Source of the DNA: Marinifilum sediminis
GTDB lineage: Bacteria; Bacteroidota; Bacteroidia; Bacteroidales; Marinifilaceae
Direction: 5' to 3'
NCBI GenBank assembly: GCA_947496465.1
Contig: CANMCX010000002.1
Span: 400,137 to 424,136 of the forward strand
Length of the DNA stretch: 24,000 bases
Part shown: positions 8,746-13,559 of the stretch, one piece after another
How positions within the stretch are numbered: position 1 is the first letter of the stretch
Layout of the letters: every line of letters starts with the position of its first letter
Made by a program: the position numbers and the translations under genes
The notes under the pieces: generated by a model
What the model was told of the DNA's origin: nothing
The model's input: the letters and a program-made list of their open reading frames with translations, nothing else
Databases searched by the model: none

Positions 8746-8819
8746 GGACGCGTAGCATAACTGGATAGTGCACCACGTTACGGCCGTGGAGGTTGGGGGT
8801 TCGACTCCCTCCGTGTTCA
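8746..8819 (+). tRNA. tRNA-Arg (anticodon ACG), copy 1
   Basis: Hand-folded cloverleaf of 74 nt. Acceptor GGACGCG/CGTGTTC (two G-U pairs), D arm GCAT-AACTGGATA-GTGC, anticodon arm CCACG-TTACGGC-CGTGG (ACG at 8780-8782), variable loop AGGTT, T arm GGGGG-TTCGACT-CCCTC, discriminator A. CCA is not encoded. Confidence 0.93.
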
Positions 8820-8870
8820 CATTAAAAATCTTGCTTAGATTAAAGGGGCTTCCACCCTCTAAGTTAAGAG

Positions 8871-8930: not shown

Positions 8931-9004
8931 GGACGCGTAGCATAACTGGATAGTGCACCTCGTTACGGCCGAGGAGGTTGGGGGTTCGACTCCCTCCGTG
9001 TTCA
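8931..9004 (+). tRNA. tRNA-Arg (anticodon ACG), copy 2
   Basis: Same cloverleaf as copy 1. The only differences are A to T at 8960 and T to A at 8972, which pair with each other in the anticodon stem (CCTCG...CGAGG). Confidence 0.93.
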
Positions 9005-9056
9005 CATTAAAGAGCTTGTTTAGACTATAGGGGCTTCCACCCTTCTAAGCTAAGAA

Positions 9057-9093: not shown

Positions 9094-9110
9094 TATGCTT
9101 TAATTAACAT

Positions 9111-9142
9111 TGAAAAAAAATACCACCCGAAAAATCAAGTGG
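9111..9142 (-). terminator. probable intrinsic terminator of the 217-aa gene
   Basis: The minus-strand RNA folds CCACTTG-ATTTTT-CGGGTGG (7 bp including two G-U pairs) and is followed by TATTTTTTTTCA. It lies 26 nt past the stop at 9168. The G-U pairs form only on the minus-strand transcript. Confidence 0.5.
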
Positions 9143-9167
9143 CATTTCAGAATAACTAGAATTCTAT

Positions 9168-9821
9168 TTATTTAACGATTACACCTAAAACTTCCAATTT
9201 TTGGCGCTCATTGCCTTCGTAAAATAAATCGAGACAGGCACGCAAATCGGAACAGTAGGCCATAAATTCGCCATAGTATTCTTGTTTCTTAGTGGTGGCT
9301 TGTTGAGCTTCACCATCTTCTTTCTCGGCATTCAGTTTTAATTCATCTACGGCAATCAAATCTCCTTGAAGAGCTGTTATTACCTCAGGAGTTAAAGCAA
9401 CCAATGTCAATTTTTCCTGAATTGCTTCATGAGTAATAATTGCATTTACAGTATCATCAGCCAATGCTTTCCACTCAGGATATGCAGTTGGAACTTCCCT
9501 GTTTAAACGCAGAAGAGTTGACAATTCAAGATCATTTTTAAAGAAATAACGACCCACCTTACGAATATGAATCAACTTATCGTGAATCGTGGTATAAGAA
9601 TCGTTAAATACACGAGTTGCCTCGCTCGATTCAATACGTTCGGTATTTTGAACCTCGAAAGCAATTTTGGTTTTGGTATAAAGGGTTTTTCCCAATTCGA
9701 TACGCTCTTCGGGATAGATAAGTGCTATCCGTTCTTTAATAGAGGCATCATTGGAAACTCCATAAACCAATAGTCTTCCTTTTTCGAGTTCTTTCAAATA
9801 ACTTTCTTTCATCTGTTTCAA
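9168..9821 (-). CDS. hypothetical protein, 217 aa, acidic and probably all-helical, no family recognised
   Basis: Clean ATG-initiated ORF, with only a short shadow ORF on the opposite strand. It has its own downstream terminator. There is no signal peptide, TM segment or catalytic motif that I can identify. Confidence 0.6.
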   Translation of the reverse strand: MKQMKESYLKELEKGRLLVYGVSNDASIKERIALIYPEERIELGKTLYTKTKIAFEVQNTERIESSEATRVFNDSYTTIHDKLIHIRKVGRYFFKNDLELSTLLRLNREVPTAYPEWKALADDTVNAIITHEAIQEKLTLVALTPEVITALQGDLIAVDELKLNAEKEDGEAQQATTKKQEYYGEFMAYCSDLRACLDLFYEGNERQKLEVLGVIVK

Positions 9822-10150
9822 TTTTTAAATGTAAGATTAGATGAAACTAAGCTTGATTCAATAATTCTTCACGAATGTGAATTAATAATTACTGAATCAT
9901 GGATGTTTCATAAGATTAAATTTTAATTGTTCTTTTTGAAATGTAAATTGTAGTAATTACTTCGTTTTAATAAGGAAAGCAAGAATAAGTAACTGCCGAA
10001 ATAGACCCTATATTGCTGCAATTGATAGAGATACAAAACAGAATACTTGCCCTACATATTAGAGGATGAATTGATTACAGTAATCAATTCTTAATTATCT
10101 ATAATAAAATTAGAAGAGTATTATGTGAAAGTCAACAAGTGTACTGTACT

Positions 10151-10480
10151 TTTTTTGTGATATTCATCACCTTTTTTAACAAAACACAGTCTGCCATTCA
10201 TTTTTTTGTGACTTTCTGTCATTTTTGAGCAATTCCCCCAGCTTTTTAGCGATTCCCCTCACTTTTCACTGACTTTCCGTCGCTTTGGAATGATTTTCCC
10301 ATACTTTGGGTGAGTTCCCCTCACTTAGGATGCATTTTATTACATTTGGGTTGTATTTTCCTTAGGCTTGGGGCTTCTCCCCTTACTTTGGAGGATTTTA
10401 TATTAGTGTGGCGATTCTGTATTTTGCTTAAGTGGGGTTTTGGATTGGTTTGAAGGGTTGAAATTAGGAATGATGAGACA
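10151..10480. repeat. array of about 12-15 degenerate direct repeats of about 21 bp (T-tract + short dyad GYGA-N5-7-TCAC with pyrimidine-rich centre)
   Basis: Units read on the plus strand begin at 10151, 10201, 10222, 10243, 10263, 10284, 10305, 10325, 10345, 10368, 10387 and 10407, with lengths of 19-23 bp. Examples are TTTTTAGCGATTCCCCTCAC, TTTGGGTGAGTTCCCCTCAC, TTTTTGAGCAATTCCCCCAGC and TTTTTTTGTGACTTTCTGTCA. No ORF of 60 aa or more lies on either strand. Confidence 0.65.
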
Positions 10481-10492
10481 TTAATAGACTTT

Positions 10493-10528
10493 GGAAAAAG
10501 AAAAGGCTGAGCTCTCGCTCAGCCTTTC
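10493..10528 (-). terminator. intrinsic terminator of the KAP NTPase gene
   Basis: Stem AAAGGCTGAGC (10502-10512) / GCTCAGCCTTT (10517-10527) with loop TCTC. On the minus strand it is followed by TTTTCTTTTT. It lies 13 nt past the stop codon at 10541-10543. Confidence 0.75.
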
Positions 10529-10540
10529 AGGAACTTATAG

Positions 10541-11989
10541 TTATATTAATTCATCCATTATTGAAAATCCTTGGATACATAGAGCGTATCTATTTACCTC
10601 TTTTCTAAACAAACTCAGTTCCTTTTTACCAATAATTACTTTCTGATCTTTAATTTCATATTTAAATTCCAAATTATCAACCATAATAGAATAATTACCA
10701 TCCATTCTCGAAAAATTATTTCTATAACCCAATACCTCTATCAACTCAACTAAATGAAATTCATCCAAACGACTAGCAAATCTTGTCTCCGCAAGGGATT
10801 TCATCATTTTTAGAGAATTAAACAACATTTCATTATTTCCATCATATAAAAAAAGTAACACTTTATAACTCCATCCAATCGATTTTTCTTCAATCCTGTA
10901 GTAGCAATCTGATTTTACCCTTAAAGACTCACTTAGTGAAATTGGAAAATTATAAAGTTTCAATAATTGTCGAATATTCAAAAGTCCATTTTGTAACAAA
11001 TCATATATTATAAGATCTATAAACTTAGTAAAATGCTCATTACAATTTGCGCAAAATGAATTCATAGCTATGAATTTCTGAGTCAGTTCTTTTAAATGAT
11101 TATGCCAATTATAAATATTGTTAAAATAAAATATTTCAACAGATCGAAACTTATCGATGTAGCCCTTAAAATCAACATTATTACCGAATTTATTAATGAA
11201 GATTTTTTCAATATTATAAAGATCACAGACCAATATTATTTTAGAGAACCCAAATTTATTATCCAACTCAATTGATTCAAATTGCTGTTGGTCGAAATGA
11301 GCTGAGAACACATTTAACAAACGAAAAATATGATTAGGGTCAACGCGATCTAAATCATCGATAATGAGAACTGTTTCTTTTTTCCCTTTATTTTCATCGT
11401 TCAGCTTATGAATTTCCTCTGAAATAAAATAAGATAATGAATCCATTTCGTAAATAGAGCCTTTGCACGATTGAAAATTCCTAGAATATTCCTCTAGTGT
11501 AGCGAACATTTCATTTTCTGGCTGCTTAAAAGACGAATTCAAATTAGAACAAAATTTTATTATACTCTCAAATGAACTTACAGCCTTACCCAGTTTGGGG
11601 ATCCCTTTAAGGATATCTAAAGCTAAGTTTGCACCATCATTCATTAAATAATACTGAGAGGCCAAAATTTTATCCTTCAAATTATATTCTGGAGTGGTAA
11701 AATCAATAGATGGGATTAATTCAGTTAGAATATCAAACTTTAATAGTTCGAATATATCCTTGTTATTGGCTACTTGATAATTTACAGGATAAAGGTGAAA
11801 TACTTGATATTTATCTTCTTTCCCCTTAAAGAATTCTTTCAAAAAAGTAGTCTTGCCTGTACCGAAGGGAGCTGAGAATAAAATCCTATTATTCTCTGGT
11901 ATATCAAGATGTTTATCAAATTGTTCTAAAGGTTTGGCTATTGGAACAATCAAATCATTTTTTTCTTTTTCTAATGTCTCTGAGGTCAT
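10541..11989 (-). CDS. KAP-family P-loop NTPase, soluble (no TM insert seen)
   Basis: Walker A in the KAP context RILFSAPFGTGKTTFLKEFF. Walker B as the KAP-typical ETVLIIDDLDRVDPNHIFRLLNVF. The later block YIDKFRSVEIFYF resembles the KAP motif that follows. Length is 482 aa, and the gene is visibly more AT-rich than its neighbours. Confidence 0.82.
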   Translation of the reverse strand: MTSETLEKEKNDLIVPIAKPLEQFDKHLDIPENNRILFSAPFGTGKTTFLKEFFKGKEDKYQVFHLYPVNYQVANNKDIFELLKFDILTELIPSIDFTTPEYNLKDKILASQYYLMNDGANLALDILKGIPKLGKAVSSFESIIKFCSNLNSSFKQPENEMFATLEEYSRNFQSCKGSIYEMDSLSYFISEEIHKLNDENKGKKETVLIIDDLDRVDPNHIFRLLNVFSAHFDQQQFESIELDNKFGFSKIILVCDLYNIEKIFINKFGNNVDFKGYIDKFRSVEIFYFNNIYNWHNHLKELTQKFIAMNSFCANCNEHFTKFIDLIIYDLLQNGLLNIRQLLKLYNFPISLSESLRVKSDCYYRIEEKSIGWSYKVLLFLYDGNNEMLFNSLKMMKSLAETRFASRLDEFHLVELIEVLGYRNNFSRMDGNYSIMVDNLEFKYEIKDQKVIIGKKELSLFRKEVNRYALCIQGFSIMDELI

Positions 11990-12116
11990 AAATTCAAGTT
12001 TAAATCAAATTTGAATTTATGAAAAACCAAGCAAGAACAAAAGATTTGAGATGTTAAATTAAAAATAGCAATTTGCTTCCTTATGTGAGATATTCATTCC
12101 AGAATGATACACTCCC

Positions 12117-12151
12117 AAAAACAACAAAAGCCCACTCCGTTTCCGAAGTGG
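12117..12151 (-). terminator. intrinsic terminator closing the glycan-utilisation operon
   Basis: The minus-strand RNA folds CCACTTCG-GAAA-CGGAGTGG (8 bp with one G-U, GAAA tetraloop) and is followed by GCTTTTGTTGTTTTTGGG. It lies 47 nt past the stop of the last gene (12198). Confidence 0.7.
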
Positions 12152-12197
12152 ACTTAAGCAAACCAAATGAAGGTAACCACTACCTATCACATTATTT

Positions 12198-13559
12198 TCA
12201 TAGAGAAGCTTCCGCCAATCTCCTTTTATCCAAATCGGTTTTCATTACTACACAAGTTTCATGATCGATGGTATAGAAATACAAGAGAATGGCACAAGAC
12301 ATGTATAAAATTCCTGGAATTACTGAAATCATCAACTTAATGCCTGTAATTGCGGTTTCTGTTTGTTCTACATTGGGTGCAAATTCGAAAATTGCCAATA
12401 ACCAACCTGCCAATGCTCCACCTATTCCCCAACCAGCTTTTTGTGCAAAAGTGGCTGCAGAAAATACCAATCCGGTTGATCTTCTTCCTGTTTTCCACTC
12501 CGAATAATCAGCTGTATCGGCAAGCATGGTCCATAGTAATGGAACGGCAGGTGCGTATGCCATTTTTGCCAAAATATTAAAGGCATATATCATTGCAGTA
12601 TTCTCTGCATTGGGAATGTATAGGCAGATGAAGAAAAATCCGGAAAGTAATGAACTAGCCAAAAACACATTACGTTTTCCGAATCGTTTTGCCAATGGTT
12701 TAGAAAAAGGAATCGCCACAATTAAAGCAATAGTTCCAATTACATTAAACAACTGAACATTTTCTTCATTTCCTATGTAATATTTAAAGTAGTAAGCAAT
12801 GGATAAATTTTGCATTGCAAACATGATAAACGAAATAATACCCACAAAAAACAGAATTACCCAGGGCTTGTTTTTAAATAGGTTTTTGAAATCTTCTTTT
12901 AAATTCTCCTTTTGTTTTTTGGGTGGTTGCACACGTTCTTTTGTGGTTTTAAAAGTAATCATGAACAAGGCAAAACTGATGATCGAAAATAGAATTAAAG
13001 TGTACTGATATCCTTTTGCATTGTCACCTCCACCAAAATACAAAGCCAAACTTAGAGCCGTTCCCGAGACAATAAACTGCCCAATAAAAGCAAATATAAA
13101 TCGGTATGAGTTTAAGCCTGCACGTTCATAAGAATCAGATGTCATAACGGCTCCTAAAGAGGAATATGGGAGGTTTATAGCTGTAAAAACAGACATCAAC
13201 AAGATGTATGTAACTCCTGCGTAGATCACCTTACCTGTCGCTCCTAAATCGGGTGTTGTAAAAGTAAGAACAGCCAGCACGCTATACGGTAAAGCCATCC
13301 ATAAAATATAAGGTCGAAACTTTCCCCATCGAGTTTTGGTACGGTCGGCAATAATACCCATAATTGGATCACTAATCATATCCCAAAAACGAGCAATTAA
13401 CATGATGGTTCCTGCTGCAGCTGCTGAAATTCCAAATGTATCGGTATAAAATATCAGAATCCAAAAGCCTACCATATCCCATACAAAATGAGAAGCTGTA
13501 TCTCCTAGACTGTAACCTACTTTTTCTTTTAAGGATAATTTTGACTCAATCTTACTCAT
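12198..13559 (-). CDS. GPH-family (glycoside-pentoside-hexuronide:cation) symporter, MelB/YicJ-like
   Basis: About 12 hydrophobic segments and the GPH loop signature ARFWDMISDPIMGIIADRTKTRWGKFRPYILW. Length is 453 aa. Confidence 0.88.
   Translation of the reverse strand: MSKIESKLSLKEKVGYSLGDTASHFVWDMVGFWILIFYTDTFGISAAAAGTIMLIARFWDMISDPIMGIIADRTKTRWGKFRPYILWMALPYSVLAVLTFTTPDLGATGKVIYAGVTYILLMSVFTAINLPYSSLGAVMTSDSYERAGLNSYRFIFAFIGQFIVSGTALSLALYFGGGDNAKGYQYTLILFSIISFALFMITFKTTKERVQPPKKQKENLKEDFKNLFKNKPWVILFFVGIISFIMFAMQNLSIAYYFKYYIGNEENVQLFNVIGTIALIVAIPFSKPLAKRFGKRNVFLASSLLSGFFFICLYIPNAENTAMIYAFNILAKMAYAPAVPLLWTMLADTADYSEWKTGRRSTGLVFSAATFAQKAGWGIGGALAGWLLAIFEFAPNVEQTETAITGIKLMISVIPGILYMSCAILLYFYTIDHETCVVMKTDLDKRRLAEASL

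Follow-up and report, generated by a model that had tools for sequence, protein, structure and literature searches.

KAP-family NTPases with unknown C-terminal regions were reported in 2026 to protect against phage (PMC13552941), and a related streptococcal system has been reported in a preprint. In EF_KAP, the one protein studied in detail, both Walker B and the C-terminal region were needed, and protection was not by abortive infection (PMC13552941). Tmn (YobI/KAP-like) and PifA of the F plasmid are further single-gene NTPase defenses of the KAP/YobI class, and RdrA of the RADAR system is a ring-forming defense ATPase. Here we describe a gene for a 482-amino-acid (aa) KAP-family P-loop NTPase, called KAP below, in a 24,000-nucleotide (nt) stretch of Marinifilum sediminis DNA (the window, G000:C2:400137-424136, from a source genome of about 34% GC). 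The gene stands in a 3-kb block beside two tRNA-Arg genes, together with a tandem repeat array and a small gene of the PQLLE family. Comparison with related loci makes it likely, if well short of certain, that the block joins an ancestral PQLLE/array module to an exchangeable single-gene KAP anti-phage cassette.

The closest described counterparts differ from this locus in instructive ways. Like the proteins of PMC13552941, KAP is encoded by a single gene, has an N-terminal KAP NTPase with Walker A and B motifs and a variable C-terminal region without a known domain, and is found in accessory or defense locations. The published proteins originate from Firmicutes and have transmembrane helices at the N terminus and inside the NTPase, whereas KAP has none; the likeness described here is one of architecture and context. 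KAP differs from Tmn in lacking both a PADLOC Tmn match and a transmembrane insert. RdrA is the best structural match, but it is much larger (835 aa), and no gene for an RdrB-type adenosine deaminase lies within 9100-12200. As in core-gene-anchored defense-island hotspots, there is a fixed anchor, alternative defense systems occupy one position, and some sites are empty; here, however, the right-hand anchor alone is conserved, and the boundary of the cargo coincides precisely with a palindromic terminator that the loci share. By analogy with the proteins of PMC13552941, KAP probably represents a new soluble member of the anti-phage KAP NTPases that lacks transmembrane segments, with its function suggested by context. 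A sequence-only reading of the same DNA had called such a system minimal or undescribed, which was an overstatement, as single-gene KAP-NTPase defenses have been published (PMC13552941).

The KAP gene and the variable slot

Features of the block and its borders are listed with positions counted from the first letter of the window.

8746-8820 and 8931-9005, plus strand: two tRNA-Arg(ACG) genes (Rfam), convergent with the PQLLE gene
9117..9148, minus strand: terminator-like hairpin, terminator of the PQLLE gene
9168..9812, minus strand: PQLLE-family gene, 214 aa (NCBIfam NF052641); the open reading frame itself spans 9168-9821, 217 aa
9813..10204, minus strand: AT-rich spacer or leader from the array to the PQLLE start (alignment of 7 orthologous spacers)
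10205..10395, minus strand: repeat array, about 9 to 10 units of 19-21 nt (autocorrelation)
10501..10528, minus strand: hairpin terminator GGCTGAGC-N-GCTCAGCC at the cargo/array junction (terminator scan)
10541..11989, minus strand: KAP-family P-loop NTPase, 482 aa (PF07693)
11990..12110, minus strand: KAP cassette leader and putative promoter region (conservation with loci L017, L018, and L112)
12128..12155, minus strand: hairpin plus T-run that terminates the glucan/MFS operon lying upstream; the variable slot has its left border here
12198-13559: MFS_2 gene, directly before the 12128-12155 terminator on the minus strand

The duplicated tRNA-Arg, the small gene, the repeat array, the KAP NTPase, and the terminators named in the sequence-only reading were all present. 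Across the region, seven terminator-like sites were found against 2.2 expected. A gene-free stretch of 719 nt separates the KAP open reading frame from that of the 217-aa protein. Also as noted in that reading, no integrase, nuclease, or methylase was found in the 3-kb block by open reading frame calls and Pfam.

Gene content, synteny, cargo turnover, and the defense neighborhoods of KAP homologues were read directly from the comparison loci (given here by L numbers), whose genes are simple open reading frame calls. The space immediately upstream of the array held the following occupants.

Window, L017, and L018: KAP
L112: KAP, then an AAA_15/AAA_21 gene and an RloB gene
L021 (Ancylomarina euxinus): AbiLi (E 2.9e-75) and AbiLii (E 1.8e-15)
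L027, L028, and L032: type II methyltransferase MTase_II (E 9e-103), PDC-M31A, and PDC-M31B
L029 and L034: empty, without a same-strand gene

Two further contigs, L019 and L020, are duplicates of L018 and likewise carry KAP. L112 and L018 have downstream Cupin_2 and 488-aa genes in common, so these two loci differ by the AAA_15/AAA_21 and RloB pair; in L112, an AbiL pair lies between KAP and the array. PDC-M31A (E 1.4e-87), a component of the PDC-M31 candidate system, is fused to a BsuBI/PstI N-domain in the three loci that carry it. In L021, the AbiL pair has a gene for a reverse transcriptase of the group II intron type (RVT_1, GIIM) just upstream (L021:1-1103).

Similarity between loci with different cargo begins at the GGCTGAGC-N-GCTCAGCC hairpin, and the form of this hairpin with an N7 loop matches 10 loci, closing KAP, AbiLii, or PDC-M31B cargo in 8. 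Only a degenerate copy is present in L017, the window copy has a 6-nt loop and is unmatched by the N7-loop pattern, and the hairpin is missing where the slot is empty (L029 and L034). About 100 nt 5' of the KAP ATG are conserved among the four KAP loci (window, L017, L018, and L112), and sequences further out are unrelated. With its own conserved leader and its own terminator, KAP therefore has the form of a cassette, and the slot upstream of the array, as judged from these alignments, is probably a hotspot where defense cassettes are exchanged. The palindrome at the cargo/array junction could be either a retained terminator or a recombination site; the examined slot loci showed neither an integrase nor a recombinase. 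Perfect copies of the GGCTGAGC-N-GCTCAGCC palindrome also occur at L018:1916-1936, L021:3771-3791, and L027:6456-6476.

The protein itself matched the PF07693 KAP_NTPase model with 31.3 bits against a cutoff of 20 over residues 37-281, and its Walker A (PFGTGKT) and Walker B (LIIDDLDR) motifs agree with the identity first proposed for it. Residues G43, G45, K46, D211, D212, D214, and R215 are invariant across 30 KAP homologues. No transmembrane segment was detected in KAP, the highest 19-residue Kyte-Doolittle mean being 1.14, which upholds the earlier view that the usual transmembrane insert is lacking; in the AlphaFold2 (AF2) model, the insert of KAP, at about residues 95-200, forms amphipathic helices that have a low predicted local distance difference test (pLDDT) score. 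Homologues have the N-terminal NTPase (about residues 1-290) in common and diverge over the last 190 or so residues, and residues from about 290 to 482 gave no Pfam, NCBIfam, or PADLOC match. Such a division is typical of a constant NTPase engine joined to a changeable part that would serve in sensing or as an effector. The AF2 model had a pLDDT of 76, and its top PDB fold match was the RADAR ATPase RdrA (8hr8), with a probability of 1.0; a KAP profile searched against PDB sequences gave no match.

KAP homologues were collected in a word-filtered search in which 8,000 candidates were scored, and 1,701 proteins were found at an E value of ≤0.001. Named proteins among the best 120 matches were mostly from Bacteroidota, with one from a cyanobacterium. 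A search of 41 related genomes, none of them of the same genus, found KAP in just 3. Outside the PQLLE slot, five homologues (three distant and two closer) were sampled for context; defense or mobile-element genes were found beside four. Among the distant homologues, each about 40% identical to KAP and of the same length, one sits within a type I restriction-modification (R-M) operon, with hsdS on one side and hsdR on the other (L115), one directly follows hsdR (L116), and one is part of an element that also has genes for an integrase, Fic, MobC, and nSTAND3/S8 peptidase (L114). A gene embedded in a type I R-M operon very often has a defense role. Of the closer homologues, the one in L113 (52% identical) is downstream of a TIR-TPR gene, and the one in L117 (54% identical) has neither PQLLE nor a tandem repeat nearby, with no defense or mobile-element Pfam family among the called genes of that locus.

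The patchy distribution of KAP, the slot that relatives fill with AbiL or PDC-M31, and the homologues in type I R-M operons together indicate that KAP is probably an accessory, defense-related gene, as the sequence-only reading had supposed. The same reading had raised the question of whether KAP homologues co-occur with defense genes and with a similar array; several of them lie near defense genes, and L117 has KAP with no tandem repeat nearby.

Gene orders in the two R-M loci were hsdM-hsdS-KAP-516aa-DUF413-hsdR (L115:4806-14794) and hsdS-YhcG-hsdR-KAP-291aa (L116:2225-9443), and the unannotated same-strand gene that follows each KAP homologue could be a partner. At L113:7400-7640, downstream of the KAP homologue, there is a 21-nt array of another kind, with the unit GWCTTTRAG-N12 and a T-rich gene strand, and after it a gene for a 308-aa CarboxypepD_reg-like protein.

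Under the cassette reading, the PQLLE gene and its upstream 21-nt array would be an old Marinifilaceae chromosomal module beside tRNA-Arg(ACG), AraC, and YceI, and defense cassettes would have been swapped immediately 5' of the array, in a space that the conserved hairpin terminator delimits. The slot in the window would then be filled by a self-contained cassette consisting of a promoter region, the gene for a soluble KAP NTPase, and a terminator. KAP would most likely act as a single-gene anti-phage NTPase. By analogy with the published KAP fusions, its conserved N-terminal NTPase could serve as an NTP-driven switch or oligomerizer, and the fast-evolving C-terminal 190 aa or so might sense phage or carry out the effect.

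Several observations weigh against an anti-phage cassette. The single PADLOC match of KAP was to mad8, covered the P-loop only, and had an E value of 0.0023, and no effector domain was recognizable in the protein. The fold match to RdrA 8hr8 is weak (E 1.8e-3; template modeling [TM] score, 0.42), and published KAP defenses carry transmembrane helices, while the window protein has none. Base composition, offered earlier as consistent with horizontal acquisition, helps less than it seemed to. No gene in the window is richer in AT than KAP (28.7% GC versus 34.7 ± 2.3% for the other 22 open reading frames), but its GC content at third codon positions (GC3), 25.9%, is inside the range of 27.2 ± 3.2%, so its AT richness stems from the amino acids encoded and argues only weakly for transfer. 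Finally, in 3 of 6 loci (the window apart) with homologues at least 52% identical, KAP stays next to or near PQLLE, which could reflect function rather than shared descent. We consider common ancestry of a single hotspot to be the best explanation for the recurring KAP-array-PQLLE order in Marinifilaceae, and sequence comparison suggests that KAP is probably not tied to PQLLE.

The PQLLE gene and its repeat array

The small gene had been described from the sequence as encoding an unrecognizable 217-aa protein. It has no Pfam match, which fits that description, but NCBIfam model NF052641 (PQLLE family) matched with 169 bits against a cutoff of 80, and homologues begin at the ATG at 9812, for a length of 214 aa. 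The C-terminal motif of the PQLLE type is present, reading ERQKLEVLG, with L206, E207, and G210 invariant. An AF2 model built from a 34-sequence alignment (pLDDT, 93) is all-helical, with two helices of about 56 residues; Foldseek searches of PDB and BFVD with this model gave nothing at an E value of ≤0.001, only generic coiled-coil matches. A phage origin for PQLLE-like proteins was considered and rejected, with no meaningful PHROG match. At 37.3% GC, the gene is slightly over the window average, in line with the earlier remark that it is compositionally closer to the core genome.

The closest protein homologues are from Ancylomarina, Labilibaculum, and Marinifilum, all Marinifilaceae, and orthologues 79 to 86% identical are encoded in Ancylomarina euxinus, Labilibaculum euxinus, L. 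manganireducens, and Marinifilum breve. Genes of the PQLLE family were present in 13 of the 41 related genomes, often in multiple copies. Gene order around the orthologues was conserved. L. manganireducens (L034) matches the window, with PQLLE followed by tRNA-Arg(ACG), AraC (77% identical), and YceI (69% identical); L. euxinus (L027) has the PQLLE, tRNA-Arg, AraC, and YceI genes with one glycoside hydrolase inserted; and M. breve (L035) has two tRNA-Arg genes near PQLLE. This synteny places PQLLE beside tRNA-Arg before the genera split and argues that it is no part of an insertion. On these comparisons, PQLLE and the array are ancestral at the locus, and tRNA-Arg is a syntenic neighbor, not an integration site. 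The two tRNAs were the only Rfam matches in the window, and this search provided no known RNA family for the array or leader.

The repeat array also follows PQLLE and not KAP. Within 10190-10400, self-identity at lags of 20/21, 41, and 61/62 was 0.46 to 0.55, compared to a maximum of 0.444 in 1,000 shuffles, with a super-period of about 61 to 62 nt. Read along the gene strand, the unit approximates CAAAAGTGAGGGGAATCGCT, and A and T make up 44% and 15% of the array. What is recognizably the same unit, AAAGYNRGGGGAAYYGCT, precedes PQLLE in L017, L018, L021, L027, and L034, whatever lies further upstream; in L029, where the PQLLE gene is a paralogue or an orthologue 58% identical, the unit is related but different. 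Tandem Repeats Finder (TRF) was run on 79 PQLLE loci, the clearly titled ones being from Bacteroidota, Cyanobacteria, Chloroflexota, and Ignavibacteria, and arrays of the period-21 family (21, 42, 63, and so on) were counted in 600-nt regions.

600 nt upstream of PQLLE: 49/73
600 nt downstream of PQLLE (control): 2/75
600-nt region 4 kb upstream (control): 1/58
600-nt region 4 kb downstream (control): 0/55

Because the array is found with PQLLE both at loci that have KAP and at loci that do not, its partner appears to be PQLLE, and on distribution it belongs to that gene rather than to KAP. Units of these arrays keep strict register, differ in sequence from locus to locus, and often alternate between two subtypes; on the gene strand, arrays were T-poor in 51 of 57 cases. 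Tandem repeats of constant size (20-21 nt or 40-41 nt) and variable sequence, without known function, have been described in bacteria by Subirana and Messeguer (PMC8161180). The arrays described here resemble them in their strict period of about 21 nt, locus-specific sequence, and noncoding nature; no partner gene was named in that work, whereas here the arrays lie upstream of PQLLE genes. A literature search on PQLLE, DUF6261, and 21-bp repeats found nothing relevant.

The spacer between the array and the gene contains blocks conserved among the 7 orthologues, including a dyad (ATGATA..TATCAT) and a possible -33 TTG / -7 TAATTTTA promoter near 10095-10135, an assignment based on the Bacteroidota consensus. 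The dyad reads ATGATA-N2-TATCAT in relatives and GTGATGAATATCAC in the window (10160-10185, minus strand), just downstream of the array; with a conserved block resembling a promoter after it, the dyad has the look of an operator. No minus-strand terminator-like site was found within 9822-10200, and no open reading frame of at least 50 aa spans the window array. The canonical Bacteroidota promoter TAnnTTTG is almost absent on both sides of the arrays, which does not discriminate between an RNA and a DNA role. The array may work with PQLLE either as phased DNA binding sites or as an RNA repeat leader. Its fixed orientation and T-poor sense strand favor RNA; the period of two helical turns and the conserved dyad and promoter-like block between array and gene favor DNA.

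Other identities for the array were tried and rejected. A structured leader RNA gained no support from RNAalifold on the seven orthologous spacers (-2.8 kcal/mol, almost no covariation). Coding heptad repeats would vary with a period of three, and the unit variation in inspected arrays of other loci was not three-periodic and lay in contiguous blocks. Repeat RNAs of the VIPR type have 5-nt GGY/NN units and a RAMP protein. For an iteron/Rep origin, repeats and an AT-rich spacer are present, but an initiator with winged-helix domains was not matched: the protein is all-helical without a Rep-like structure match, and the site is chromosomal and syntenic.

Immediate PQLLE neighbors in 63 loci, given as rough tallies without a matched control, included seven N6_Mtase/Eco57I-type enzymes, three NACHT proteins, and WD40/TPR proteins, with ResIII helicases, HEPN/nucleotidyltransferase pairs, TIR, DpdE, and ZorD-like proteins downstream. 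These neighborhoods suggest that PQLLE modules often live in defense islands.

Alternative explanations for the block

The adjacency of KAP, array, and PQLLE in the window, L017, and L018 would also be expected of one three-part system, in which, for example, the NTPase loads or remodels PQLLE on the repeats, and L113, where the 52%-identical KAP precedes a further 21-nt array and a helical protein gene, can be viewed in the same way. We judge such a system very unlikely, as the array and PQLLE also occur with AbiL, with PDC-M31, or with an empty slot, the AbiL pair separates KAP from the array in L112, and L117 has KAP with neither PQLLE nor an array. Strong terminators stand between the units, and the distant homologues in R-M operons have no PQLLE. 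The suggestion in the sequence-only reading that the array or the 217-aa protein might be the partner of KAP is accordingly not supported, since the array accompanies PQLLE regardless of KAP and close KAP homologues occur without PQLLE, but it was right to call a connection between the two genes uncertain. That reading had also treated the block as one tRNA-adjacent islet. A mobile-element remnant integrated at tRNA-Arg would account for the nearby tRNA, the AT-rich KAP, and the terminators flanking the block, yet it is highly improbable: the block contains no integrase, no copy of a tRNA 3' end bounds it (the sole tRNA-derived repeat is the tRNA duplication itself), and the variable part lies on the far side of a PQLLE gene that is conserved beside the tRNA, with the array, AraC, and YceI, across genera.

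KAP could also be a housekeeping or regulatory NTPase whose neighborhoods are coincidental, as the absence of a matching known defense model and the normal GC3 would allow; its presence in 3 of 41 genomes, the slot it shares with AbiL and PDC-M31, and the defense or mobile-element genes at 4 of 5 sampled contexts make this unlikely. Alternatively, the array could encode an RNA that neutralizes PQLLE as in type III toxin-antitoxin systems (ToxIN/CptIN/TenpIN), so that this pair and not KAP would be the conflict element. Repeat position and strand bias fit, with tandem repeats directly upstream on the same strand and T-poor in 51/57 loci, unit sequences are locus specific, and defense genes often neighbor PQLLE loci. 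However, PQLLE is all-helical rather than of the ToxN-type fold, array and gene have no terminator between them at this locus, units measure 21 nt where 34-45 nt would be expected, a conserved promoter-like block separates array and gene in this PQLLE subfamily, and PQLLE is syntenic and core-like here, which together make the toxin-antitoxin explanation very unlikely. It is also conceivable, though improbable, that PQLLE and its phased array form an undescribed defense-island module in which the hairpin/array junction captures or exchanges cassettes or the pair senses or controls the adjacent cassette. If so, this would explain why AbiL, PDC-M31, KAP, R-M, and NACHT/WD40 genes are so often found immediately upstream on the same strand.

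Under the favored reading of an ancestral PQLLE/array module with an exchangeable KAP cassette, the locus points to a branch of soluble KAP NTPases lacking transmembrane segments, which would be good and cheap phage-defense candidates outside the model phyla. With a single anchor, no fewer than four alternative cargos, and sites that are empty, it offers a natural set for studying cassette exchange in marine Bacteroidota. The window also adds genomic context to the pairing of 21-nt arrays with PQLLE, namely cassette turnover at the upstream edge of the array and a tRNA-Arg/AraC/YceI anchor.

Other 21-nt arrays in the source genome

Period 21 was by far the commonest in the TRF rows of the source genome (26 rows), with 14 rows of period 42, 3 of period 20, and 9 of period 22. 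Intergenic arrays elsewhere in this genome precede a DUF6261 gene, three paralogous helical CarboxypepD_reg-like genes, and a gene for a distant PQLLE-like protein of 254 aa; examples are at C17:73907-74051, C18:797-1055, C8:12277-12671, C22:25799-25972, and C1:1009213-1009303. The array-adjacent CarboxypepD_reg-like paralogues have a helical-looking N-terminal region. At G000:C2:133952-136691, a gene for a 404-aa protein with a weak ABC-3C CTD7 match (E 1.6e-4) is divergent from a gene for a 214-aa helical protein, with a 21-nt array between the two. The distant PQLLE-like gene in L023 (G000:C1:1008400-1011900) is flanked by Vsr-like endonuclease and IS200/REP-type Y1 transposase-like genes (named from their translations), and its upstream array would translate as DKPLGxx heptads.

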